Source: Candidatus Dojkabacteria bacterium (lineage in GTDB: Bacteria; Patescibacteriota; Dojkabacteria; JAOAGR01). Taken from it: a DNA stretch of 60,616 nt. The stretch covers positions 1 through 60,616 of the forward strand of contig JAOAGR010000001.1 in the NCBI GenBank assembly GCA_026415655.1, read 5' to 3'. Made by a program: the position numbers and the translations under genes. This document shows, one piece after another, positions 8,747 through 38,930 of the stretch. Position 1 is the first letter of the stretch; every line of letters starts with the position of its first letter. The notes below the pieces were generated by a model, which saw only the letters and a program-made list of their open reading frames with translations, was not told the origin of the DNA and did no database searches.

Positions 8747-8817
8747 AATCTAAATCATATAATCTTTTGATAAATTTTACAAATTATAAGTCCGAATGTG
8801 ATAATATTAATCCGCAG

Positions 8818-11800
8818 ATGAATAACAAACTAATAACTAATTTCTTTGAACTTTATAATCAACTAAATAATGAACAGAAAAAGGCTGTAGATATGATTGA
8901 TGGACCTGTTATGATATTGGCCGGTCCTGGTACTGGTAAGACTCAAGTTTTAGCGCTAAGAATAGTTAATATCCTGAGGCAAACAGATGTAGAACCAAAT
9001 GATATCTTGTGCCTTACATTCCAAGATGCTTCTGTACAAGCAATGCGTAATCGGTTGATACGTTTTTTAGGAAATGATGCATACCGAATCAACATACATA
9101 CTTTTCATTCCTTTTGTAATGATGTAATACGTACATATCCAGATATTTTTAATTTCAATCTAAATGTAAGTACTATCTCTGATGTGGATAAGTTGGATAT
9201 TTTCAGGGATATAATTTTAAATAATAAGCTTGATCAACTACAATTTACTAACGATATTTTAGGTTATTTTTCTTCGTTAGTTCGTACAATATCTAATCTT
9301 AAAAAAGAATATATAACACCAGCAAAATTAAAAGAAATAATTCAGATATGGGCGCAAGGTGATCAGGATGTTGAACTGCGCAAGTTAGAACGGATGAACC
9401 AATTGGTTATTTTCTATGAAGAATATCTAAGAATAATGAAAGAAAGGAGTTTAATAGATTTCGATGATATGATCTATTATGTTACTGAGGAATTTACGAA
9501 AAACGATGAATTAGTACGTATTTATCAAGAAAATTTTTTATACACACTTGTCGATGAGTTTCAGGATACAAATAATGCCCAACTTGAAGTAATAAAACAT
9601 GTTGCAAATTACGAAGGTCTAAATTCTAATATATTTGTTGTTGGTGATGACGATCAGACTATCTTTAGATTTCAAGGCGCGTCTCTGAGTAACTTTTCAT
9701 CATTTTTGGAAATATTCCCTGATACAGAAATTATTGTTTTGAAAACTAATTATCGTTCAGGACAACAGATAATTGATGTCTCTGAAAATGTAATAAAAAA
9801 TAATGAACCATTTCGATTAGTTAATAATGATTTCTTAAAATCACGAAATTTAGATAAAAATTTTGTTTCAGGTAGAGGTTTAGATTCGAGAGTATCGGTT
9901 CATGAATTTAACAATGCTCTACATGAAGACTATTTTATAGCTAGTTCTATCAAGTCGCTTATAGATTCGGGTGTTGATCCAAATGAAATTGCGATAATTA
10001 CACGTAATAATAGACAAATATCTAATATTACAGGGTTTTTAGATGCTTTTAGGATAAAATATAAAATTAAAAAATCTAATAATTTGTTGGATGATAACTT
10101 TATTCTTGATATTATTACTATTTTCAAAGCAATAAATGATCCCAAACTTTTGTTTGATGATAGATTTATGTGGGACTTTTGCAATGTAAAATTCTGGGAT
10201 TTAAATATATATGATCTTCTTGCACAGATGCACAAATCGCGTGAAAGTAATAAATCTTTCTATGAACTCATCAAAAATAGCAATGATATTTTATATATTA
10301 AATTTAAAGGCGTTTTGGATGAAATTGTTAATTTATCAAAGAAGATTTCAGAATTTTCGGTTGAAAATATTTTTATTAAAATGATTAATAAACTAGGTAT
10401 ATTGGAATATCTAGGGAAAATTGATGATTCTCATTTGTATCTACATAAAATTGGTATTTTTTATCAATATATACAATCAAGACAGAAATTTTATCAGACT
10501 TATTTTGGAAACAAATATAGCTATATATTGCAAAAATTAATATCTGATCTGGATAACATGCAAAAGCGTGAAGTTATAATACCTATTGATATATCTGATG
10601 TGGAGCAGATGGATGGGATAAACGTTATTACAGCTCATTCATCAAAAGGTCTCGAATTTGAATATGTTTTTCTCTATCAGTGTATCGAAAATAACTGGGA
10701 GAAGGTCCAAGGTAGGGTAGATCCATTTAAATCACCGTTGTTTAATAATTTAATACCATCAGAACTTAACGAAAAAGAATATGACGAAAGAAGGCTTTTC
10801 TATGTGGCCTGTACTAGAGCTAAGAATGAATTAATTATTACATTTGCGAATAAGTATCCTGCATCAAGTAGTGGTGAGCTTGATTGGAAGGAAAAAAACG
10901 TTAGTAAATATGTGCTTGAAACAAATATTGAAAAATTTATTAGACATGATGAACTGATAGATCAAGATGAAAAAATAAATCAGATATTGTTATCAGACAT
11001 AGATGATGTAGTATTTGATGATAATACTAAACAGTATTTATCGAATATCATTCAATCAAATTTTACTTTATCGTTTACTGGGCTCAAGAAATATTCAGAT
11101 TACTGTAAATATAAGTTTTTATTGGAAAATATATTCAAAGTACCTACGCCTACTAGTGCGGAGTTACTGATAGGTACTTTTGTTCATGAGGGAGTAGAGA
11201 ATATCATTAAATATGGAGTTAACAATGAAAATACGCTAGATAATTTGATAAAAAAAATATTAGAAAAGGCAGAACAAGAGTATCACTCAAGCGATTTTAT
11301 TTTTGAGGTTTCTTTAGACAAGATAAAAGATAAAATTAGTAAAAGTATAAAAGCTTATTTTGAATATTATCAAAATAATTTCTCCCTAAGGGTATATTCT
11401 ATTGAAACTAATATCAAAGCATGGTTTGAAAATATTCCAATTAACGGCAGGGTAGATATGATAGGTTTTGAGCAGGGAGCTTATGTTATTTCTGATTTCA
11501 AAACTATTTCAAAAATTCCTTCGATAGGTGATTTTTTAGGTATAAATAAAACATCACAAAATCAGCATTTACAGCAGTTACTTTTTTATAAATTATTGAT
11601 TGAAAAGTGTAGTTATCAAAATATAAAGTTGTTAAAAAATAAAATAAAATCACTTCGTATTGAGTATATTGATACTACAGATTACAGAGTAATTCCTTTT
11701 GAGATCCCGGCATTTGGTATCTATGAATATCGTAAAAGAGTTAATTCTAAAGAAACTTCCGAGTTTGACCTAGATCAGGTATACGAAGAGTTAAAAAATT

Positions 11801-11904
11801 CTATAAAAGATGTTTACAATTCGATTGTAGCATTAGATTTTAGAAAAACTGATGATTTGTCAAAATGTGAAAAATGCCCATTTAGAAAACATTGTCGTAG
11901 GTGA
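8818..11904 (+). CDS. UvrD/PcrA-family SF1 helicase fused to C-terminal PD-(D/E)XK nuclease
   Basis: AGPGTGKT, LVDEFQDTN, VGDDDQTIFRFQGA, NYRS, TAHSSKGLEF, ERRLFYVACTRAK; GRVD..ISDFKT, QLLFY, CEKCPFRKHC. ATG 8818 chosen over TTG 8767. Confidence 0.93.
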   Translation: MNNKLITNFFELYNQLNNEQKKAVDMIDGPVMILAGPGTGKTQVLALRIVNILRQTDVEPNDILCLTFQDASVQAMRNRLIRFLGNDAYRINIHTFHSFCNDVIRTYPDIFNFNLNVSTISDVDKLDIFRDIILNNKLDQLQFTNDILGYFSSLVRTISNLKKEYITPAKLKEIIQIWAQGDQDVELRKLERMNQLVIFYEEYLRIMKERSLIDFDDMIYYVTEEFTKNDELVRIYQENFLYTLVDEFQDTNNAQLEVIKHVANYEGLNSNIFVVGDDDQTIFRFQGASLSNFSSFLEIFPDTEIIVLKTNYRSGQQIIDVSENVIKNNEPFRLVNNDFLKSRNLDKNFVSGRGLDSRVSVHEFNNALHEDYFIASSIKSLIDSGVDPNEIAIITRNNRQISNITGFLDAFRIKYKIKKSNNLLDDNFILDIITIFKAINDPKLLFDDRFMWDFCNVKFWDLNIYDLLAQMHKSRESNKSFYELIKNSNDILYIKFKGVLDEIVNLSKKISEFSVENIFIKMINKLGILEYLGKIDDSHLYLHKIGIFYQYIQSRQKFYQTYFGNKYSYILQKLISDLDNMQKREVIIPIDISDVEQMDGINVITAHSSKGLEFEYVFLYQCIENNWEKVQGRVDPFKSPLFNNLIPSELNEKEYDERRLFYVACTRAKNELIITFANKYPASSSGELDWKEKNVSKYVLETNIEKFIRHDELIDQDEKINQILLSDIDDVVFDDNTKQYLSNIIQSNFTLSFTGLKKYSDYCKYKFLLENIFKVPTPTSAELLIGTFVHEGVENIIKYGVNNENTLDNLIKKILEKAEQEYHSSDFIFEVSLDKIKDKISKSIKAYFEYYQNNFSLRVYSIETNIKAWFENIPINGRVDMIGFEQGAYVISDFKTISKIPSIGDFLGINKTSQNQHLQQLLFYKLLIEKCSYQNIKLLKNKIKSLRIEYIDTTDYRVIPFEIPAFGIYEYRKRVNSKETSEFDLDQVYEELKNSIKDVYNSIVALDFRKTDDLSKCEKCPFRKHCRR

Positions 11905-12062
11905 TTGTATATTTTGGAATAGATAAAATAAATTCAATAAAGTAAAAACAAAAAAATGCATACATGCAAATAATTTCTTATATTTATTTAATAAAACAAA
12001 TGTTCTTGAATTATATTGAAGTTAATAGTCTGGTTATATTACCATAATGTATTATTGTAAAT

Positions 12063-13403
12063 TCATGGACAGGGTACATTGCGCAGTAGATGCCAATACT
12101 GGGTTACTATTCCATTTGGTTTTCCGTCACTTCCTACATGTACTAAAACAGCATAATATGCAGGATCATTTTTAAAAGTGCCGTTATAATCATAACAACC
12201 ATATCTAATATACCCATCAGACATAGCGTATATTGGTGCACCATGATAGGACGCGATATCAACCGGACCTCCATGTGCTACTGATGATTGAGTGATCACG
12301 TAGTTAAACATTGGGGGATGAGAGACTAAATTATTATTTGCTCTTCCGGGCAGATATGTATCTGCATTTTTTCTTTGACCATTTACTATGACTTCTAGGT
12401 GCAAATGTGAGCCTAGAGAAGGGTATTGTACAGGATCATAGTAGTACCAATTTGGTCCCAAATGACTACAATAATTATTTGTTCTTGGTACTGGATTTGC
12501 AGGATAATAGCTACATGAAAAACCTGTTCTTCCTTGAAATCCGATCACCTGTCCTGCCTTTACAAATGCTCCTGATGGCGGCATGACAGCAAGTTTTAAT
12601 CTATATTCGCTTAGTTCCCGTTCTAATCTTTTCATTTCTTCAGAGAGTTGAGCATCTTTAGAAAATAAATCTTTTTGATTATTGAGCGATTCCTGGATTT
12701 GTTTGTCTTTGTTTTGTTTTTGCCATTCGAGTGCCTGTTGTTGCATTTTTAATCCTTCGTATTTTGATACTGTTTCTTCTTTGATTTTGTTTATTTCATC
12801 TTTTTTTTGAATTATTGTTTGCTTTTTTTCTTGTAATTCATTTTCAAATGTAATAATTTCTTCTTTTTTGTTTTTAATTATTGTTGTTATTGCTTTTTGT
12901 TTTTCTTGCTCTAATATCGCATTTTCTAGACTTGTGGATTCATAAAGTAAACTTGGTGAGCTAATCTGGCGTTTGTATAAAAAGTTTATCGAAATTTCAT
13001 ATTCGTTTTGTAATCGTTTTAATTCTTCATTTAATTCTTTTATTCTATCTTCAAGTTTTGCTTGTTCATCTATGAGAATACTGAGTTCTAATTCTAATTT
13101 TTCTATCTCCAAACTTAGTGTCTCTATCATTATTTCGTTTTGTCTAATAGTAGAATCTAAAACGACCTTTTGCTGCTTGAGACTAGCTTGTTTTTGAGCT
13201 TCTGACAATATAGTATTTTTTATTTTCTCTCGCTCTTCTTTTAATTTCCTCAATTTTTCTTCGGTTTCTTTTAGTTTTTGTTGCATTTCACTTGTTGCTT
13301 GTGCGTGTACAAATTGGCTAGTTATGACATTTACATGTAGTAAAATCATTACAACAACACCTATTAAAATAAAAATTATTTTTTTTGCGGTTCTGTTTAT
13401 CAT
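12063..13403 (-). CDS. Secreted coiled-coil M23/LytM peptidase (EnvC/PcsB-like FtsEX partner); M23 domain circularly permuted
   Basis: Signal peptide, long coiled coil, GQVIGFQGRTG..GSHLHLEV followed by HGGPVD..GAPIYAMSDG..TQYWHL; directly downstream of ftsX. Confidence 0.85.
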   Translation of the reverse strand: MINRTAKKIIFILIGVVVMILLHVNVITSQFVHAQATSEMQQKLKETEEKLRKLKEEREKIKNTILSEAQKQASLKQQKVVLDSTIRQNEIMIETLSLEIEKLELELSILIDEQAKLEDRIKELNEELKRLQNEYEISINFLYKRQISSPSLLYESTSLENAILEQEKQKAITTIIKNKKEEIITFENELQEKKQTIIQKKDEINKIKEETVSKYEGLKMQQQALEWQKQNKDKQIQESLNNQKDLFSKDAQLSEEMKRLERELSEYRLKLAVMPPSGAFVKAGQVIGFQGRTGFSCSYYPANPVPRTNNYCSHLGPNWYYYDPVQYPSLGSHLHLEVIVNGQRKNADTYLPGRANNNLVSHPPMFNYVITQSSVAHGGPVDIASYHGAPIYAMSDGYIRYGCYDYNGTFKNDPAYYAVLVHVGSDGKPNGIVTQYWHLLRNVPCP

Positions 13404-13406
13404 TTG

Positions 13407-14369
13407 CTATTTACTAACATATTTTATTACAGCTATAAAGCTACTCATACAGCCCAATATTGCACCGGCCAATGAAACATATAAATAAAACTGTAATATA
13501 AGATAAGAATCAATTTCAGGCCATGGTACAGTGCCGATTATACCGAGTATTTGATTGATAGAATTTGGATAATAAGTAGTAATCAAATAATACGATGCCC
13601 AAATCATGCTTACAGATATTATTCCACTGATTAGACCATATAATGCACCATTTATAATGAATGGTGTTCTTATAAACCAACCCTGTGCGCCGACTAGATT
13701 CATTATCTCTAGCTCCTTAGAATGATAACCTATACTAAGTTTTGTAGTAATAAATATAAGTATCATGGATACCGTTGCCAATAGCCCTGTTGCCACTATA
13801 CCTGCGATTTGCACAAATTCATTAAGAGATCTTATAAAGTCTGCCTGTCGAATGTCAAAATTATACCAGCCAAATTTGTCTATATTTTGTTTATCAACAA
13901 GAGATAAAAATTCTTCATCATTTTCTAAATAACTAATAAGTTTTCTCAGCGTTTCTTGGCTTTCTCCTCTGATAAACGCAATTCGTGGTAAAACACCTTC
14001 TAACACAGAATCATCAACTTCAATATCTTTAATTTTTTCTTTAAAATCACGTTTTGAAAATTCATAGTCTTGTAAATTAACATCAACATTTAGTCCCGAA
14101 CTCTTTATCTTGTCTAAGAATTTCTGCCCTTCTTCATCGGTCAAGTTGCCTTTTAGATAAATAATCAACGGGGGTTTAGAATCTATATATTCAATTATTT
14201 TGGCAGATCCGTAATAAAGAATCAAACACAAAATAATTATAAAAAAAGAAAGTGTCATAACCGTCATCGAAGCTATACTAAGCCCAATATTTCTCCACAT
14301 GTATTGGAAAGCAGTCTTAAAAAGTCTAGCAATTATAATAAAAATGTTTGTTTTATAGTTCATAGCCAC
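13407..14369 (-). CDS. ftsX: Cell division permease FtsX
   Basis: WRNIGLSIASMTVM, ELEIMNLVGAQGWFIRTPF; follows ftsE. Confidence 0.92.
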   Translation of the reverse strand: MAMNYKTNIFIIIARLFKTAFQYMWRNIGLSIASMTVMTLSFFIIILCLILYYGSAKIIEYIDSKPPLIIYLKGNLTDEEGQKFLDKIKSSGLNVDVNLQDYEFSKRDFKEKIKDIEVDDSVLEGVLPRIAFIRGESQETLRKLISYLENDEEFLSLVDKQNIDKFGWYNFDIRQADFIRSLNEFVQIAGIVATGLLATVSMILIFITTKLSIGYHSKELEIMNLVGAQGWFIRTPFIINGALYGLISGIISVSMIWASYYLITTYYPNSINQILGIIGTVPWPEIDSYLILQFYLYVSLAGAILGCMSSFIAVIKYVSK

Positions 14370-15045
14370 CTATATAATCTCTTATAACTCTTCCGTTTTC
14401 AAATGCAATAACACGCTTATTAAGTGAATTTACCACTTCGACATCATGAGTTGCAACAATCACCGTTGTACCCCAATTATTGATTTTGTTTAACAATTGT
14501 ATTATATCCCATGTATTGCTCCTATCCAGATTACCTGTTGGTTCATCTGCTATGAGCATTAATGGTTCATTTACTACTGCTCTTGCGATTGCAGCTCTTT
14601 GTTGCTCACCTCCAGACAAAGTTTTAGGAAAAGCATCTTTTTTATCAAGTAAACCAACCAAATCTAGTACATATTCTACAGCTTTTTTTATCTCTCTTGT
14701 GGGTTTACCGCATACCTCGAGAACAAATGCAACGTTTTCCCAGACAGTTTTAGTCTCTATTAGCTTAAAGTCTTGAAAGATAATTCCAATCATTGATCTA
14801 TACTTTGCTAGTTTACTTCCAGAAAGTTTATCGACCCTTATTTTTGAATTAAATATTATTTTTCCTGACGTTGGTTTTTCCTGTTGTATTGCTAATTTCA
14901 CAACCGTGGATTTACCAGCGCCAGAGGGACCTACCAAAAATACAAATTCCCCTTCGTCTATGGCAAAGGTAACATCGTCTAATGCGTATTTGTCTTTATA
15001 TCTTTTTGTTACGTTTTCAAAGATTAACACAGTATTTTTATTCAA
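14353..15045 (-). CDS. ftsE: Cell division ATP-binding protein FtsE
   Basis: GPSGAGKST, IFQDFKL, LSGGEQQRAAIARA, ADEPTGNLD, GTTVIVATHD. Confidence 0.95.
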   Translation of the reverse strand: MNKNTVLIFENVTKRYKDKYALDDVTFAIDEGEFVFLVGPSGAGKSTVVKLAIQQEKPTSGKIIFNSKIRVDKLSGSKLAKYRSMIGIIFQDFKLIETKTVWENVAFVLEVCGKPTREIKKAVEYVLDLVGLLDKKDAFPKTLSGGEQQRAAIARAVVNEPLMLIADEPTGNLDRSNTWDIIQLLNKINNWGTTVIVATHDVEVVNSLNKRVIAFENGRVIRDYIGGYEL

Positions 15046-16324
15046 TTGGTATTATAACAATAATAATGTTTTTTTCATCATTTGATATTCGATGAAACCA
15101 GAAGGGCAGATTTGATACTTCTAAATCAATCTCATATCTTTCTAAATATTCTAGTTTATCTAATACTTCTTTTGCTTCATTAATATTTTTTGATTTTATT
15201 CTGTTTGCAATTTGTTTTTTATCTATTTGTGGTTGGGCTATGCCGTTTATCCTAAACTCTATAGCTACAGAATCTGTTTCTGATCCTACTACATTAACAA
15301 TAAAATTTTCTTTATTTCCATCCCATATATAACTCTTGGGTAATCTTTGTTTGATAAGATCATTCTTTATATCATTGAATTGATTTTTTTCAAATGCTTT
15401 TATTATGCCTTTGGCATTCATTCGAATATTGAAGGTTTCTGATTCATCTTCAGCTTTCTTGTTAATATTAGAATCAATTATTTCCAATCTAAATGTATTC
15501 TCGGCTATTAGATATGTATTTGTATAGTTTTTATTTGTTTTTATTTTAGTTAATATTTGAGTTTTTAATGATTCTTCTATATTTTTAAGGGCATTCTCGA
15601 TATCTTGTTGAGTTATTATTTTCACTTTTTCTGCCTTTGTGCCGCCTGTAATTGATGTTGTGTTCGTCAGAAAAACCTCATTTATATGATCATAACTGCC
15701 TACGGAGAATCGTGCTCCGGCTGGTATATTGTATTTTTCGCTTATTTCCGAAGCTTCTATCTTTATTTCACCTTGAGAACTAAAACCAGAAACTTTTACC
15801 TCACTCAATAAAATATATTCTAAACCTGCGCACAAAGAAGATACACATTTTATTTTTGTGTTTATTGGTAGGCGAATTTCCTTGTCTGTAGAATTAAAAA
15901 TTGCTACTTTTCCTGTTGCTTTGCTTCCCTTAATTTTTTCTCCTGTAGCATTATATTCAAGATCAAATGCATCTTCTAAAGTCAGTTCTGTAGTTTTTAG
16001 CTTATTATCATTAATATTAAATGATAAAACTCTATTTATACTGATTTTTTGTGTTTTATAGTATATACGTATGTATGTTTTTGCATATGCGTCTACATAG
16101 GTATTTAATCCTATAAATCCAATGAATAATAATATAATTATTGATATTAATATAAGCCTAAATAGCTTTGAATTTAAAGGTTTATTCAAGACATTATTTG
16201 ACTTTTTAGGACTTAATTTATTCTTTGTTACATTCTTTTTATTTGAAGGGATCTTATTTTTCTTTGTTTTATTGTTTTGTATTTTATTTGTTATTAATGA
16301 TATAAACTTCAACATTATTAACAA
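15038..16324 (-). CDS. Membrane-anchored baseplate-J-like protein (C-terminal part of the CPR ftsA-adjacent family)
   Basis: Basic N-terminus, TM, ATGEKIKGSKATGKVAIFN, EKYNIPAG, ITGGT, IITQQDIENA; start codon uncertain. Confidence 0.65.
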   Translation of the reverse strand: MLIMLKFISLITNKIQNNKTKKNKIPSNKKNVTKNKLSPKKSNNVLNKPLNSKLFRLILISIIILLFIGFIGLNTYVDAYAKTYIRIYYKTQKISINRVLSFNINDNKLKTTELTLEDAFDLEYNATGEKIKGSKATGKVAIFNSTDKEIRLPINTKIKCVSSLCAGLEYILLSEVKVSGFSSQGEIKIEASEISEKYNIPAGARFSVGSYDHINEVFLTNTTSITGGTKAEKVKIITQQDIENALKNIEESLKTQILTKIKTNKNYTNTYLIAENTFRLEIIDSNINKKAEDESETFNIRMNAKGIIKAFEKNQFNDIKNDLIKQRLPKSYIWDGNKENFIVNVVGSETDSVAIEFRINGIAQPQIDKKQIANRIKSKNINEAKEVLDKLEYLERYEIDLEVSNLPFWFHRISNDEKNIIIVIIPIE

Positions 16325-33465: not shown

Positions 33466-36102
33466 ATGACAAAAATATTTTTTAAAAAAAAACTAAAGTA
33501 TATAAAAAATTCTAAATTTTTCAAACTCTTGTTTGTTCTCTTACCAGATAAAAAATTTTTTGTAAATACATTTAATTTGTTCTTAGCTTTTTTGATTTTT
33601 TTGATATTCTTTCTTATTTTTTATAGTACAGGTAGTACTCAACTAGCTAATGCCGAATCACCATTTGGCGATAAAATTGATAGTACGATGGATGGTGCCT
33701 TTTCTTATCTTACGGGATCATTCGGGGGACAAATGTTTAATTGTTATTACGCAAACACCCCGATAGGCAAAACAAGTGGAAATGATATTGATTGTGAGAC
33801 TGGAAATATAAATCCTAGTAATATACAAGCTATAATACAGGGAACATATGCAGGACCTCTATTATGGAAAGCAGATGCTGGTGCGATAGGACGTTTGGTA
33901 AATGCTACAAGAGCAGTTTCTACTGTGAGAGTTTTGAATCCTGGTGAAACAGCATTATATTATGCTAAACAAGCAAGAAACGAAGTTTATGCTCAATCTA
34001 TAGAGATACAATCTGGCCGAAACGTACTGGCACCTGTGTTTTTTCTTTATGAAACAACAAAAAATTTAGCATTGAGTATTATTGTGATTATTCTTACGGC
34101 AGGAGCTTTTAGCATATTAATATCAAATCTCACATTTTCAGAAAGTAAATTAAATATAGTACAGCTCTTTTTAAATACAGGTATCACTACCGTATTTATA
34201 CTTTTATACTACGAGATAGCAGCTATAATATATGACTTGACCGTTAATTATGGAAATGCGCTAGTTGCTGGAGTTTTAACTCCATATATAAATGCAAGGG
34301 CTGTCCTTGAAAGACTTCAACCGGGTGGTGACCTTAGTATTATGGCACTTTTTAGTACTATGTATTTTGTAGGCGTGAACGACGCCTTAATAGTTGTATT
34401 AAAATCAATTTCGTCATATTTTGAACCAGTTCTATACCAAACAGCACAAGCTACTCAATCTATACTTCCTGGTGCAACAGGATATGCACTAGGAGGAAGT
34501 GGGGTTGCCAATCTTATTTCAGCTACAGTTTCAAGTATGACAGGATTTGTTGTTGGCCTATTCATACCAGGTATAAAATATATTCTTTCAGCAAAACCTT
34601 TATTTGATACGATACTGGCTTTTATCATATTTTTTATGCAATTAAGAATATTTTTTACTCTTTTGTCCTCATTTGTTGGTTTTATATTAATGACGGGATT
34701 TGGACCCATAATGATAGTAAGTTCTGGTATAAATGAGGGTTGGGAAAATGGAATACTGCCTAAAATTAAAATGCTCATGGCTAATGGTTTAGTTTTTCCT
34801 GTAACCTTTTTCTTTATTTTGCTTGCCGCTATTACATTTAATATTCGTATGCCAGAGTCTATTATCGCTGATATGGGTGAAAACGTAAGAAAAGAACAGA
34901 TTTGTAGTTTTGATACAGCTATAAGTAATATAAATGGCGGAGCAGTCAATGAACAGGCTGATCGACTTTATTCAGACGCATATTATAGTCATAAGGTAGC
35001 TAATACTTTGAATCAAAATATATTTGATACTGTTCCTTCTTATCCTGGCTCTTGTAATACTTCTTTTGTAAGTCTCCCTTGGATGTATTTTCCCGCGCCT
35101 TTGGGTATTATTGGTCCACCATCAGAACAGCCATTGGTGGTAACTGGTTTAGTTATGACTTTTTTGGGCGTAGGATTCATAGTATTGGCTTCTCTTAGAT
35201 CATCACAGTTTGTATCAGAACTTTTGGATGTCAAGCCAGAGTTTCAATCTTTATCAGGTATAGTAGGTGATACGTTGAGAGTTGTTAAAGCAGTGCCTAC
35301 CGTAGCTACTATAACAGTACCGGTAACAGCTGGTCTAACTTCACTTGGCATTAGAGCTTTTATAGCCGGTGGCACATTTGTTGGAAAGCGTGGAATGGGA
35401 TGGTTATTTCGACTCTTGGATAACACTATTGGAAGACGTTTTACTTCTACATCTGGTGGATCTACAACACCACCATCCGGTACTGGACAGAATATCCGAC
35501 CGAGAGCAGGCTGGAGAGGTCCTGGTGATAGGCCACGGGTAGCTCCTCCTAGACGTGGTCAAGGAAGGCAAGCACAAAATTTACAACAAACACCTAATAA
35601 TCAAGCTAATAATAATAATAATCAAGCTGCAGCTAATAATCAGGCTCTCACAAGAGCAGAGAGAATATATATGGGATTACGACAATTACTTACAGGAAGT
35701 AGGAATATAGGAAGAGAGACATTAGCGGATTACTATGACGATTGGGTGAGACCGCGATCTACTGATTTAACTGGGGCCGAAGATTCAGCGACAGGTAGAC
35801 AATTGACCTATGAGGAATATGTTAATAGTTTGAGTAATAGAGTCGCTACAAGAGTAGGACGACAGGCGGGAGTCATAGGACCTAATCAGAAAACAACAAT
35901 TGCGGGTTTACCTCCTCATTTACAGAGTACTGCCTATCAACAGTTTGCAGAATCATTGCAGAGAGGAACACAAGGTATACAAAATCTTTCAAATGCTGCT
36001 ACGCAAGCAGCAAATGGTTTGAATACATTACTTAACCTCATAAATCAATTGGTTGGACGAACAGGTGAATTTTTAAAAATTATTGATACATTGGTAGGTT
36101 AA
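33466..36102 (+). CDS. Polytopic membrane protein, VirB6/TrbL-like, with long C-terminal tail
   Basis: Many TM helices including LMTGFGPIMIV..KMLMANGLVFPV; flanked by pilin genes and an M23 gene. Confidence 0.55.
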   Translation: MTKIFFKKKLKYIKNSKFFKLLFVLLPDKKFFVNTFNLFLAFLIFLIFFLIFYSTGSTQLANAESPFGDKIDSTMDGAFSYLTGSFGGQMFNCYYANTPIGKTSGNDIDCETGNINPSNIQAIIQGTYAGPLLWKADAGAIGRLVNATRAVSTVRVLNPGETALYYAKQARNEVYAQSIEIQSGRNVLAPVFFLYETTKNLALSIIVIILTAGAFSILISNLTFSESKLNIVQLFLNTGITTVFILLYYEIAAIIYDLTVNYGNALVAGVLTPYINARAVLERLQPGGDLSIMALFSTMYFVGVNDALIVVLKSISSYFEPVLYQTAQATQSILPGATGYALGGSGVANLISATVSSMTGFVVGLFIPGIKYILSAKPLFDTILAFIIFFMQLRIFFTLLSSFVGFILMTGFGPIMIVSSGINEGWENGILPKIKMLMANGLVFPVTFFFILLAAITFNIRMPESIIADMGENVRKEQICSFDTAISNINGGAVNEQADRLYSDAYYSHKVANTLNQNIFDTVPSYPGSCNTSFVSLPWMYFPAPLGIIGPPSEQPLVVTGLVMTFLGVGFIVLASLRSSQFVSELLDVKPEFQSLSGIVGDTLRVVKAVPTVATITVPVTAGLTSLGIRAFIAGGTFVGKRGMGWLFRLLDNTIGRRFTSTSGGSTTPPSGTGQNIRPRAGWRGPGDRPRVAPPRRGQGRQAQNLQQTPNNQANNNNNQAAANNQALTRAERIYMGLRQLLTGSRNIGRETLADYYDDWVRPRSTDLTGAEDSATGRQLTYEEYVNSLSNRVATRVGRQAGVIGPNQKTTIAGLPPHLQSTAYQQFAESLQRGTQGIQNLSNAATQAANGLNTLLNLINQLVGRTGEFLKIIDTLVG

Positions 36103-36113
36103 GCTTACTATTT

Positions 36114-38930
36114 ATGTTAATTTTAACAGCATTAGCAGGAATTTTACCAATTAGACATATATCTAGACATATACCTAGTTTTATTAATAGTTCTGATTCA
36201 GACAGAGGGAAAAATTCGTATCGAGGCACCGTTGTTGTTTCTTCAGATTATGATCGTCCAGCTATAAGTTTATCTAGAGTTGTTCAAGAGCTCGGTAAGG
36301 ATAGGACCCTGCAACGACCGAATAATGAATATAATAATGGTGAATATCAGTCTGATATTCTTACTAGATTAAATACTTTTTACAATGCTTCCAAGACGTA
36401 CAATACGTACAATAAGTATGAAAATTATTTAAAAGATCTTGGTAAATTTAATTATAGTGAGAAGGAAGGACAGAATAAGTTAAGAAAAAGTATAGTTGGA
36501 ATAAAATCAGACTCAACTAATAATAATGAAACAAAATATGAAAAAGAAGGCCATGATATAAATAGTATCCAATCGAGTATCCCTAATGAGAGATTAACAG
36601 TAGAAAAGAGAGAAAAAATAAAGAGAATTTTTTATTCATTACGAGGTATAAGTAGAGAGAAATCTAGCTCTGACTCGGGTACTAATAGTCGTATATCTAA
36701 TGAATCTTCTAGAGTTTCTGATTCTTCGTATAATGATGGAAAAATCAATATAGATCCTAATCCAAATGCGCGGAGATTCACACAAAGTAAATTTTCTGGT
36801 TCTGTCGATGGTCAGCAATTATATTCAAAGCCTAATTCAAGCTTTGATAATAAACAATTATTCCAACAAGGGGGTACGAATCTACGACCTTATGATAGTT
36901 TGGCATCAACACTTAATCAACCTGATATTTACAATAGAAAAAGTAGCGTATATGGTCAATTAGGTGTTGGATCATCGAAAAACAACAATGATAGACAAGG
37001 AGAACAAACAAGCCCTAATTATTCTAGTAAACATGATATTAATACTCTTTTAGACGATGAATATCTTGATTTAGGTAGAGAGAGACAAGCTAATGGAATA
37101 CTAGATTGGCCTGACATTATTAAACAGGAACAGCAAAAACAACAGACAGAAAATCAAGTAGAAGATGATGATAAAAAAGGTAAAGATAAAGATAAAGATA
37201 ATGATAATGATAATGACAATGATAATAAAGAATCAAATATTCAGAAAGAATTTAGTGATATTAAATCTCCAGAGAAAGTTCAGTCATATTCTCCCAATTT
37301 ATCAATAGAAAAAGATGAAAATAATTTTGTAAAAGAACAAAATAATGAAGCAGAAAAAGCAAAAGATATAAAAGAAAGTCTTAACAAAGCTACAGATCAA
37401 TTAACGAGTCTTAAAAATAAAACAAAATCAGTTCAAGATGCCGCAAAAGTGGCCACAAAGGCAGCCAAGACTGCGGGAGTAATCTCTCGAGCTGGTGCAG
37501 CTATTGCTGCTGCCTTTAGTAATCCTGTTACAGTGACAATAATAATTATTTTAATAATTTTATTGTTATTATTCTTGATATTAATTTCTATCAACACCCG
37601 TCCCGCCACAGAGACAGCAGCAAATGATGTAATAAGAAATTCTATGTCCAAACTCACGACGGGTAATCTCATTATTGTTACTTACCCCAAGGACGCATCG
37701 ACATCGTCTACATCGTATAACGCAGCGGGTGAAATACAGATTCAACCTAAGAGCACAGACGGTGGCAGAAATATTTATGAATTCAAGTTTGTTGCGAATT
37801 ATCAGATAGATTTAGAGAATTTTATAAACAAAATTTTTTATGGTGCTTCTGGGTTGATAGAACAATATCGAGTCTTAATAACGAAAATTCAGGAGAAGAT
37901 AACATTTAATAGCTCAAATGTTGAGATAAGAAGTATATCGTTTTTAGATGCGACAGGTACAAGACTATCTGCAAGTCCAAATTATACTATCGAAACTGAT
38001 GACGAAACTGGTCTTGCTTCGATTACTTGGAATGTTGAAAAATCCGGGTGGGATAGTTCCATTTCTTATCCGTGTAAAATGAACCAGAACTCTGAGAAAA
38101 AATGTACGGGTGACGTAAAATTTTCCATAGAGTATGTATTAAAAAATAACCCTAGTGAGCTGAAAAATCATATGTTCTCTGTTGTTCATGAGGTAACAGC
38201 AGATGTACGAATCATTAAAAATGCACAGGGAGCGCAAATATATAATTATTCTTTGCCATCAGTGTCATATACTCTTTGTCGTAATAGAGCTGGAGGCGTA
38301 TTTTTGTGTAGCATAGGTTCACCGGGATTAGAGGATGGGGAGGATCCCTGGGCGGGTGTTACCATAGAAGGAGTTAGAAATGAAGTAGTGTCGATCGGCG
38401 ATCTGACTTTGGCATGTCCACTGAATAATACGAATGATATAAGATGTACAGCAGGACGTAATTATCCAAAGAATCTAGATAACGCATATGCCGGTAAACC
38501 CCATAATGCTTTGGATTTAGTTCCTAACCCAGCAAATAAAACAGTATACATAGCATCAGAAGCACAACGCATCAAAATTAACAACACAAATCCAAAGTGT
38601 GGGGCTACAGTTATTTTATATAATGACAATCTTGCAATTTTATATGCACATGTGGACGGCGATGCCGTAGCAAGTACTTCTGCCTCTTTTAAAAATGCGA
38701 TGGATCAACAAAACAAAGTTGTCGAGATAAATGAGTTACAGGTTGGAGGTCCGATGGGTTGGTTAAAGGAAATAAATGGAAATACATATTTTTCTAATGG
38801 TACCTTGTGTGCAACTGGAACACACCTACACTTTACTATACTAAAAACTGATGGAACGCCTACAGAGGGTTTATATGATAAAGTGAACGAAGCGTGCGGT
38901 GGTAAAATATCCAGATGTCCTGATGAATAA
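36114..38930 (+). CDS. Large single-pass protein: low-complexity N-terminal half, TM, C-terminal M23 peptidase
   Basis: Ala-rich segment then TM (IIIILIILLLLFLILI); HNALD, LYAHV, ATGTHLHF in canonical order. Confidence 0.8.
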   Translation: MLILTALAGILPIRHISRHIPSFINSSDSDRGKNSYRGTVVVSSDYDRPAISLSRVVQELGKDRTLQRPNNEYNNGEYQSDILTRLNTFYNASKTYNTYNKYENYLKDLGKFNYSEKEGQNKLRKSIVGIKSDSTNNNETKYEKEGHDINSIQSSIPNERLTVEKREKIKRIFYSLRGISREKSSSDSGTNSRISNESSRVSDSSYNDGKINIDPNPNARRFTQSKFSGSVDGQQLYSKPNSSFDNKQLFQQGGTNLRPYDSLASTLNQPDIYNRKSSVYGQLGVGSSKNNNDRQGEQTSPNYSSKHDINTLLDDEYLDLGRERQANGILDWPDIIKQEQQKQQTENQVEDDDKKGKDKDKDNDNDNDNDNKESNIQKEFSDIKSPEKVQSYSPNLSIEKDENNFVKEQNNEAEKAKDIKESLNKATDQLTSLKNKTKSVQDAAKVATKAAKTAGVISRAGAAIAAAFSNPVTVTIIIILIILLLLFLILISINTRPATETAANDVIRNSMSKLTTGNLIIVTYPKDASTSSTSYNAAGEIQIQPKSTDGGRNIYEFKFVANYQIDLENFINKIFYGASGLIEQYRVLITKIQEKITFNSSNVEIRSISFLDATGTRLSASPNYTIETDDETGLASITWNVEKSGWDSSISYPCKMNQNSEKKCTGDVKFSIEYVLKNNPSELKNHMFSVVHEVTADVRIIKNAQGAQIYNYSLPSVSYTLCRNRAGGVFLCSIGSPGLEDGEDPWAGVTIEGVRNEVVSIGDLTLACPLNNTNDIRCTAGRNYPKNLDNAYAGKPHNALDLVPNPANKTVYIASEAQRIKINNTNPKCGATVILYNDNLAILYAHVDGDAVASTSASFKNAMDQQNKVVEINELQVGGPMGWLKEINGNTYFSNGTLCATGTHLHFTILKTDGTPTEGLYDKVNEACGGKISRCPDE

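Follow-up and report, generated by a model that had tools for sequence, protein, structure and literature searches.

The subject of this report is a gene in a 60,616-nucleotide stretch of DNA from a Candidatus Dojkabacteria bacterium (assembly GCA_026415655.1, contig JAOAGR010000001.1, positions 1 to 60,616), referred to below as the window. The gene (12063..13403, minus strand) follows ftsE and ftsX and encodes P0001, a 446-aa FtsEX partner composed of an export signal, a coiled coil and an M23 peptidase domain whose motifs stand in swapped order. In canonical M23 domains, the HxH motif lies approx. 30 residues after the catalytic His. The canonical order is not found in P0001, in which the HxH motif (residues 333-335) precedes the H(x)nD motif (377-382), which in turn precedes the catalytic His (438). 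This swapped order is confirmed far beyond chance, and much of the phylum shares the same conserved arrangement. P0001 is probably an exported coiled-coil protein with a genuinely permuted M23 domain that folds into one core and serves as an active, FtsEX-controlled endopeptidase rather than as an amidase activator.

Swapped motif order in the M23 domain

A preliminary description of this DNA, made from the sequence alone, had proposed a true circular permutation of the M23 domain, and the proposal is borne out by Pfam, PDB, profile-profile and reciprocal comparisons. The PF01551 profile gives, as had been anticipated, two partial matches to P0001 and no single colinear alignment: residues 277-296 correspond to profile positions 59-78 and residues 381-439 to positions 6-52. 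When the C-terminal 187 aa are scanned alone, the score summed over the two stretches is 30.3 bits (gathering cut-off, 28.7). A comparison of the family profile with PDB sequences places residues 15-96 of zoocin A (5kvp_A) opposite the late part of the query and residues 97-115 and 117-126 opposite its early part. Moreover, an alignment of permuted domains (A3) was compared by hhalign with an alignment of canonical domains (A5), which includes the second M23 domain of the window (36114..38930). A3 positions 37-91 aligned with A5 positions 94-141 (probability 98.7%, E 1.6e-16) and A3 positions 111-177 with A5 positions 27-87 (95.7%, E 1e-8), and thus the two alignments come in swapped order. 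The second M23 domain had been described as normal in order, and it is: its motifs run HNALD..YAHV..GTHLHF, although the Pfam match, confined to the C-terminus (last 199 aa), is weak (15.4 bits).

The reciprocal test was made with A6, a hidden Markov model (HMM) of 33 permuted domains with 138 positions. Canonical M23 domains matched this model in two swapped pieces, HMM positions 50-136 first and 4-48 second, and 51 canonical proteins matched the permuted profile twice in this manner. In contrast, P0001 gave one colinear match (HMM positions 4-137, 119.6 bits). Among the 202 matching proteins (203 scanned), 149 showed one colinear full-length match; six of them are M23-M23 proteins with two canonical domains in tandem, so that 143 permuted proteins remain. 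The permuted order is absent from all 44 solved chains matched by the permuted profile; they show the canonical order or one half only, and the long matching stretches of 6muk_A and 3slu_A each combine a degenerate repeat with a normal domain downstream of it. In both of these M23 proteins, which come from Neisseria, the domain upstream of the catalytic domain (6muk_A 186-230, 3slu_A 167-210) weakly resembles the V.xG..I hairpin half and has no HxH. For residues 272-440, the ESM Atlas model resembles M23 clusters with TM values of 0.53-0.59, which is taken as a lead only.

The permuted domain comprises residues 275-441 of P0001 (12081..12581, minus strand, as are all features of the protein given below). 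As the preliminary description had stated, it directly follows the coiled coil; the span named there, 12063..12585, corresponds to residues ~273-446 and the stop codon. The open reading frame (ORF) is intact, ends soon after YWHL and contains no extra half domain. The domain starts with the VKAGQVIGFQGRTG hairpin (12522..12563; Pfam profile positions 59-78), which belongs to the C-terminal half of a normal M23 domain and in which G284, G291 and G294 are conserved. Next come the GSHLH segment with the HxH motif (12399..12413), in which H333 is catalytic and H335 a Zn ligand by homology, and the junction (12306..12377), where the former C-terminus (..N..YL) runs into the former N-terminus (P..VITQ), with 17 residues between the conserved N and P. 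The normally N-terminal half follows, with HGGPVD (12258..12275), an H(x)nD motif with n=4 (H377 and D382), and the GAPIYA strand (12225..12242), which lies within residues 381-439; its P390 is present in 128 of 142 permuted proteins. Close to the C-terminus, the YWHL motif (12087..12098) carries the third catalytic His, H438, which corresponds to His260 of LytM in the YxHL-type strand.

In the form common to the relatives of P0001, the coiled coil is followed after 5-8 residues by xGxxVxxGxxIGxxGxTGxSxGxHLHF..nG..vNP..YL..nG and then by WP....ITQxYG...HxGID...GAPxxAaxdGxV......G..v.i.H.dG..t.YwH[LIVM][QRK] and the stop codon. Thus, a segment of ~45 residues (V.xG..IG..G.TG..HLHF..NP..YL) that normally ends the domain now stands after the coiled coil and ahead of the part that is normally N-terminal (WP..ITQ..H(x)nD..GAPxxA..YxHL) and here comes last, and the chain stops a few residues past the third catalytic His. 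This motif order shows that a normal M23 domain has been cut open in the loop connecting its YxHL strand to its V.xG hairpin. A short piece of constant length joins the former termini: 12 residues separate the conserved N from the conserved P in 100 of 142 proteins. The median permuted domain is 130.5 aa long; for M23 domains in general, 131 aa is given in a review of the family (PMC9662197), which also defines the zinc motif as H(x)nD. In 93 of 139 proteins the third catalytic His is followed by exactly two residues before the stop codon, and 90 of these 93 end in Q, R or K.

The preliminary description had claimed that the candidate zinc-binding and catalytic residues are kept, unlike those of the dead EnvC, and conservation among the relatives supports this: both His of HxH and the Asp of H(x)nD are present in 142/142 permuted proteins, and the third His is present in 141/142. 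We infer that the two halves fold into one M23 core with a single Zn site.

Distribution and descent of the permuted form

The A3 profile finds a colinear permuted match in at least 71 of 401 genomes of the phylum, with 35 family labels. This figure was counted by hand from the best 150 of 753 matches, and a match was called colinear if it ran from A3 position 40 or lower to position 172 or higher without a stop codon, in frames of 257-528 aa. The 71 genomes include one unpublished genome (G348), without which the figure is 70 of 400; no other claim depends on it. At least 10 further genomes match A3 positions ~4-138. At 28 of 29 loci, the gene is an ORF of 376-475 aa that ends 0-5 residues past YxHL. 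P0001's own family comprises 19 homologues found by a word-indexed search and 20 representatives among 1.84 billion proteins, which are ~360-480 aa long apart from fragments. In a sample of the class, weaker matches over query residues 70-181 show the order HLH, linker, HxxxD, YWHL, and the ORFs end at YWHL[KR]. The preliminary description is to be corrected in two respects: the permutation is not special to this gene and occurs widely in the phylum, and the insertion before HLH and the H-x4-D spacing are confined to P0001's own family (see below).

A database search returned 2551 proteins at E<=1e-15. Among the matches listed, 118 proteins were new, comprising 106 permuted, six canonical and six tandem canonical M23-M23 proteins, and seven of the eight entries named after an organism belong to the Candidate Phyla Radiation (CPR; Woykebacteria, WWE3, Patescibacteria group), the eighth being a plain 'bacterium'. 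The product names are generic ('peptidoglycan DD-metalloendopeptidase family protein', 'EnvC', 'CwlO-like', 'MepM/NlpD'), and no NCBIfam model scored above its cut-off for the permuted proteins scanned.

Some genomes carry more than one copy. One locus (L024, G042:C1 61733..63618) has two permuted M23 paralogues in tandem, and genomes G212, G307 and G524 have two permuted matches each by the A3 profile. The permuted gene appears split over two overlapping ORFs at one locus (L003, 3058..4570) and broken by a TAA codon at another (L017); either may be due to sequencing error or decay. Eight further loci with strong half-matches (L052-L059) were set aside because they encode, as judged by eye, LysM-type canonical M23 proteins that are irrelevant to ftsEX.

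A canonical-order coiled-coil M23 protein is also common in the phylum and is represented by P0050 ('peptidoglycan DD-metalloendopeptidase family protein [Patescibacteria group bacterium]') and by a 408-aa neighbour of the permuted gene at locus L042. It shares with the permuted form its architecture, its size, the motifs ITQ.YG, HNGID and GxTGxSTGxHLHF, and intact catalytic residues; however, its motif order is normal. With P0050 as the query, 149 of the 150 best-listed matches were near full length, from at least ~146 genomes. The two forms also differ in location, since the canonical gene lies downstream of a Glu-tRNA synthetase gene, and not of ftsX, at all 12 loci at which an upstream ORF is available (among L067-L079), and the genomes of five canonical genes have a prfB-like gene, ftsE and ftsX followed by unrelated genes (L081-L085). 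Among the matches listed, only three of the 71 genomes with the permuted form have both (G421, G304 and G500), and there the two genes are adjacent. At L042 (G421:C37, 30..3258), the order is ftsX, permuted gene, canonical gene. The two proteins share 33% identity over 375 residues, and their alignment shows the HxH segment inserted behind the coiled coil of one protein and placed at the C-terminus of the other. This pair offers a natural side-by-side comparison of what the permutation does. Like the adjacent pairs G304:C2 9508..11263 and G500:C1 138610..140615, it comes from one family of the phylum, in which the permuted gene stands after ftsX and before its canonical-order paralogue. In P0001's own genome, the best canonical M23 protein is, by eye, of the LysM type and has no coiled coil.

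Permutation by duplication classically passes through a tandem duplicate. P0086, P0092, P0148, P0192, P0193, P0200 and P0133 each contain two complete canonical M23 domains, one behind the other, in some cases within large multi-domain proteins (with lysozyme-like and CHAP domains, or with peptidase M56). Across the junction of the first six of these proteins, an HxH half is followed by an H(x)nD half, as in the permuted form. However, both domains are complete and canonical, a coiled coil and an ftsEX context are lacking, and these proteins are at most putative ancestors of the permuted form. In a tree of 157 sequences (from 193 after removal of those at least 85% identical; 128 columns), one split unites 114 of 115 permuted sequences with two of 42 canonical ones (support 0.913). 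One permuted sequence (P0038) falls among the canonical ones, and two canonical sequences (P0077 and P0081) lie inside the permuted group with weak support. Because the canonical rows were re-ordered by script and the tree is built on a short alignment of a biased sample, the split is taken only as compatible with one main origin of the permuted form, and a single origin is not claimed.

Link to FtsEX and proposed mode of action

Three closely packed minus-strand genes appear in the ORF list of the window: ftsE, ftsX and the gene for P0001. The first gene of the operon, ftsE (14353..15045), encodes an ABC ATPase (PF00005 ABC_tran, E 1.7e-33) and overlaps ftsX by 17 nt. The permease gene ftsX (13407..14369; PF02687 FtsX, 28 bits) encodes an extracellular domain at approx. 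residues 53-185, and its stop codon is separated from the start codon of the partner gene by 3 nt. A promoter and terminator scan of 11700..15600 gave nothing that exceeded shuffled expectation. The preliminary description had pointed to the ftsEX neighbourhood, and the survey extends it from this tight operon to related loci: FtsX (PF02687 and/or PF18075) is encoded by the directly upstream ORF at 31 of 37 loci from distant families, and at L002-L004 both ftsE and ftsX precede the permuted gene.

In the N-terminal part of P0001, residues 1-34 (13302..13403), basic and hydrophobic and ending VHA|QA, are read by eye as an export signal or membrane anchor. They are followed by a coiled-coil region of ~235 aa (residues 35-270, 12594..13301), recognised from its heptad-rich sequence and weak matches to coiled-coil families; some database relatives carry PF24568 CC_PcsB. 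Homologue conservation and the complex model mark out a tip motif (residues 135-148, INFLYKRQ.., 12960..13001) as the predicted FtsX contact, and its residues N140 and K144 are invariant among 19 homologues. A complex prediction for FtsX residues 53-185 and coiled-coil residues 35-274 scored 0.80, the best of three controls reaching 0.02. This mark is attained by 116 of 157 solved complexes and by two of 215 mismatched pairs, counts that apply only roughly here because author-built alignments were used. The runs agreed in at least 82% of contacts, with a partner pLDDT of at least 77 and a pLDDT of 86-87 for the coiled-coil region. The predicted interface comprises coiled-coil residues 135-137, 139-148, 170 and 173-174 and thus includes the invariant N140 and K144. 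These predictions support binding of the extracellular domain of FtsX to the coiled-coil tip.

A working model can be proposed from these observations. Both halves of the domain would refold to give a single M23 core of the normal kind, in which H377, D382 and H335 together make up one Zn site and H333 and H438 act on the water molecule. The coiled-coil tip would sit on the extracellular domain of FtsX, and the ATPase cycle of FtsE may switch cell-wall cutting on at division, by analogy with PcsB, CwlO and RipC. Judging from its conserved residues, P0001 would cut peptidoglycan as an active endopeptidase and would not be an EnvC-type amidase activator. In particular, P0001 is read as the hydrolase itself because the catalytic residues are kept and Amidase_3 (PF01520) was not found in its own genome, which is 92% complete.

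The known partners of FtsEX can be compared with P0001. EnvC of E. coli, V. cholerae and P. aeruginosa is encoded with FtsEX or acts on it, and it resembles P0001 in its export signal, long coiled-coil hairpin and C-terminal M23-type domain, as well as in the contact between the coiled-coil tip and the FtsX extracellular domain, which is predicted for P0001. In contrast, the LytM domain of EnvC has the normal order, is non-catalytic and activates the Amidase_3 enzymes AmiA and AmiB, whereas that of P0001 is permuted and keeps its residues. The EnvC model NF008644 (cut-off 270 bits) has no match in P0001 and matches three relatives at 37.5-57.8 bits, in the coiled coil only. PcsB (CHAP), CwlO and RipC (NlpC/P60) fit the same working model as P0001 in that the coiled-coil protein is itself the hydrolase, and according to a review on FtsEX (PMC11627006) partners of this type are auto-inhibited until FtsEX acts. 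However, they are unrelated cysteine peptidases with neither a zinc site nor a permutation. Permutation of a cell-wall hydrolase with its catalytic residues swapped in sequence and its fold kept has a precedent in the NlpC/P60 families YaeF/poxvirus G6R and LRAT-like (Anantharaman and Aravind 2003, as cited in PMC6403190), whose fold and chemistry differ from those of M23.

In five genomes without either coiled-coil M23 form by the A3 profile, the genes after ftsX were inspected by eye. They encode a coiled-coil protein cut by the locus end (L060), a small membrane protein (L061), a Cys-peptidase-like protein (L062), a coiled-coil protein with a Cys-bearing end (L063) and a coiled-coil protein with a CHAP-like domain (L064), the domain type also present in PcsB.

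Several points weigh against the proposed reading of P0001 as a permuted M23 hydrolase under FtsEX control. The whole protein scores only 25.1 bits against PF01551, below the gathering cut-off, and closure of the fold and the Zn site are themselves read from the sequence. The first His of P0001 lies five residues before the Asp, compared with four canonically, and H377 falls outside the canonical His column in the profile alignment, which makes it doubtful whether this His binds Zn. Two Amidase_2 genes occur in P0001's own genome, so that an amidase partner is possible. Furthermore, the complex prediction may have passed through memory of solved EnvC-FtsX structures (6tpi, 8tzl and 8hd0), in which case it reports likeness and not binding. 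Finally, FtsX is not encoded directly upstream at six of the 37 loci, where a broken gene (L017), a gene with a lactamase fold (L023), a second permuted paralogue (L024), an ORF with a weak SH3-like match (L030) and ORFs without a family (L027 and L048) take its place.

The shifted His and the Amidase_2 genes would also suit a catalytically silent LytM-type regulator that, like EnvC, DipM or NlpD, activates another hydrolase, as would the shared operon position and the EnvC-related coiled coil to which the NF008644 matches of the relatives point. This explanation is nevertheless unlikely, given that the catalytic residues are kept across 142 permuted proteins, whereas LytM factors lack catalytic activity according to the abstract of PMC10336132. 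Moreover, the amidase class that EnvC activates is the one not found in P0001's genome, and the EnvC model stays far below its cut-off. The six loci without FtsX upstream, and the canonical coiled-coil M23 gene behind the Glu-tRNA synthetase gene, would be expected if an active permuted hydrolase were merely co-transcribed with ftsEX without being controlled by it. However, linkage at 31 loci over distant families and the invariant tip motif, which is the predicted FtsX contact, make such independence very improbable, and the studied coiled-coil partners of FtsEX are all regulated by it according to PMC11627006.

The active site could also be built in trans in a domain-swapped dimer, the HxH half coming from one chain and the H(x)nD half from a second. 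Circular permutation and domain swapping frequently accompany each other. PcsB forms a self-inhibited dimer, according to PMC11627006. In contrast, the 12-residue connection of most permuted proteins and the normal M23 size fit an intramolecular fold, and no sequence feature demands a dimer, so there is little likelihood of assembly in trans. A single case could have been misleading, since the six tandem canonical M23-M23 proteins mimic a colinear permuted match; an assembly error, a frameshift or a functionless remnant of a decayed tandem duplication might then be suspected. An artefact of this kind has a negligible probability and is ruled out by the conservation data: the ORF is intact and stops soon after YWHL, the breakpoints are identical in hundreds of independent contigs, and two-thirds of the proteins (the 93 of 139 mentioned above) end at exactly the same distance from the catalytic His.

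For the preferred reading, an active permuted endopeptidase under FtsEX control, a further step can be considered tentatively, namely that the permutation is not neutral. The preliminary description had already raised the possibility that FtsX activates this enzyme by a different mechanism. In the permuted form, the last coiled-coil helix would lead through 5-8 residues into the hairpin bearing the HxH loop, and both chain ends would lie at the active-site cleft; in normal M23 domains the groove is lined by both loop 1 and loop 4, one at each end of the domain, according to PMC9662197. With the chain ends at the cleft, half of the catalytic centre could be pulled directly when FtsEX moves the coiled coil, and the free C-terminal carboxylate may join in gating or substrate binding. 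This step is speculative and is considered unlikely on present evidence. If true, an M23 enzyme would be turned on and off by direct mechanical action, with no need for the 'restraining arm' of EnvC, which would be a new mode of control by FtsEX.

Family traits, neighbouring genes and significance

Some traits of P0001 are confined to its own family. The preliminary description had noted a Cys/Tyr-rich insertion before HLH and a four-residue spacing between His and Asp, and both are present. The insertion (residues 295-330, 12414..12521) is absent from most relatives: from the G of 'TG' to the second His, P0001 has 40 residues, compared with seven in 107 of 142 relatives, which corresponds to an insertion of ~33 residues. 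Its C297, N309, C312, Y320-322 and P328 are invariant in the family. The spacing between His and Asp is x3 in 124 of 142 proteins, x4 in five, which include P0001 (H377-x4-D382), and x5 in 12, and all the odd spacings fall within this family. The family alignment also defines a C-terminal extension, the tail LRNVPCP with Cys445 (12066..12086). Four Cys residues (297, 312, 403 and 445) are conserved in the family, which, in an exported protein, suggests two disulfides. The insertion is probably a disulfide-stapled, aromatic-rich loop of ~33 residues beside HxH, and together with the widened His-Asp spacing and the Cys-bearing tail it probably reshapes the substrate groove.

Other genes of the window were recorded alongside the operon. 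Convergent with it lies a plus-strand gene (8767..11904) for a 1045-aa AddA-like protein with a UvrD-type helicase, a C-terminal PD-(D/E)XK nuclease and a Cys cluster at its end. Farther away on the plus strand, the region 33466..38930 contains two large adjacent ORFs without a Pfam family over the whole proteins. The first encodes an 878-aa multi-pass membrane protein with a Q/N/R-rich low-complexity tail; the second (36114..38930), which carries the canonical-order M23-like domain discussed above, encodes 938 aa with an acidic, Asn-rich low-complexity region and one membrane span.

The permuted M23 arrangement is apparently undescribed. No report of a permuted M23 domain was found in full-text literature, a search outside which subscription journals and supplements lie, and the full texts on FtsEX together with Patescibacteria, or on EnvC together with the Candidate Phyla Radiation, contained none either. 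A review of M23 that covers 90,000 sequences and their domain architectures (PMC9662197) has no word starting with 'permut', nor has a review of FtsEX (PMC11627006). In domain libraries, the permuted proteins score as weak or partial M23, and they bear generic names only.

M23/LytM enzymes are among the best-studied families of cell-wall hydrolases. A widespread natural permutant with all of the catalytic residues indicates that the M23 fold tolerates re-wiring, and in this case the permutation shifts the point at which the regulatory coiled coil is attached to the enzyme. Moreover, the ftsEX-linked hydrolase occurs in a large part of Patescibacteria, whose division machinery is almost unstudied. 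It may therefore offer a way to learn how force from FtsEX reaches an active enzyme in these little-studied bacteria.

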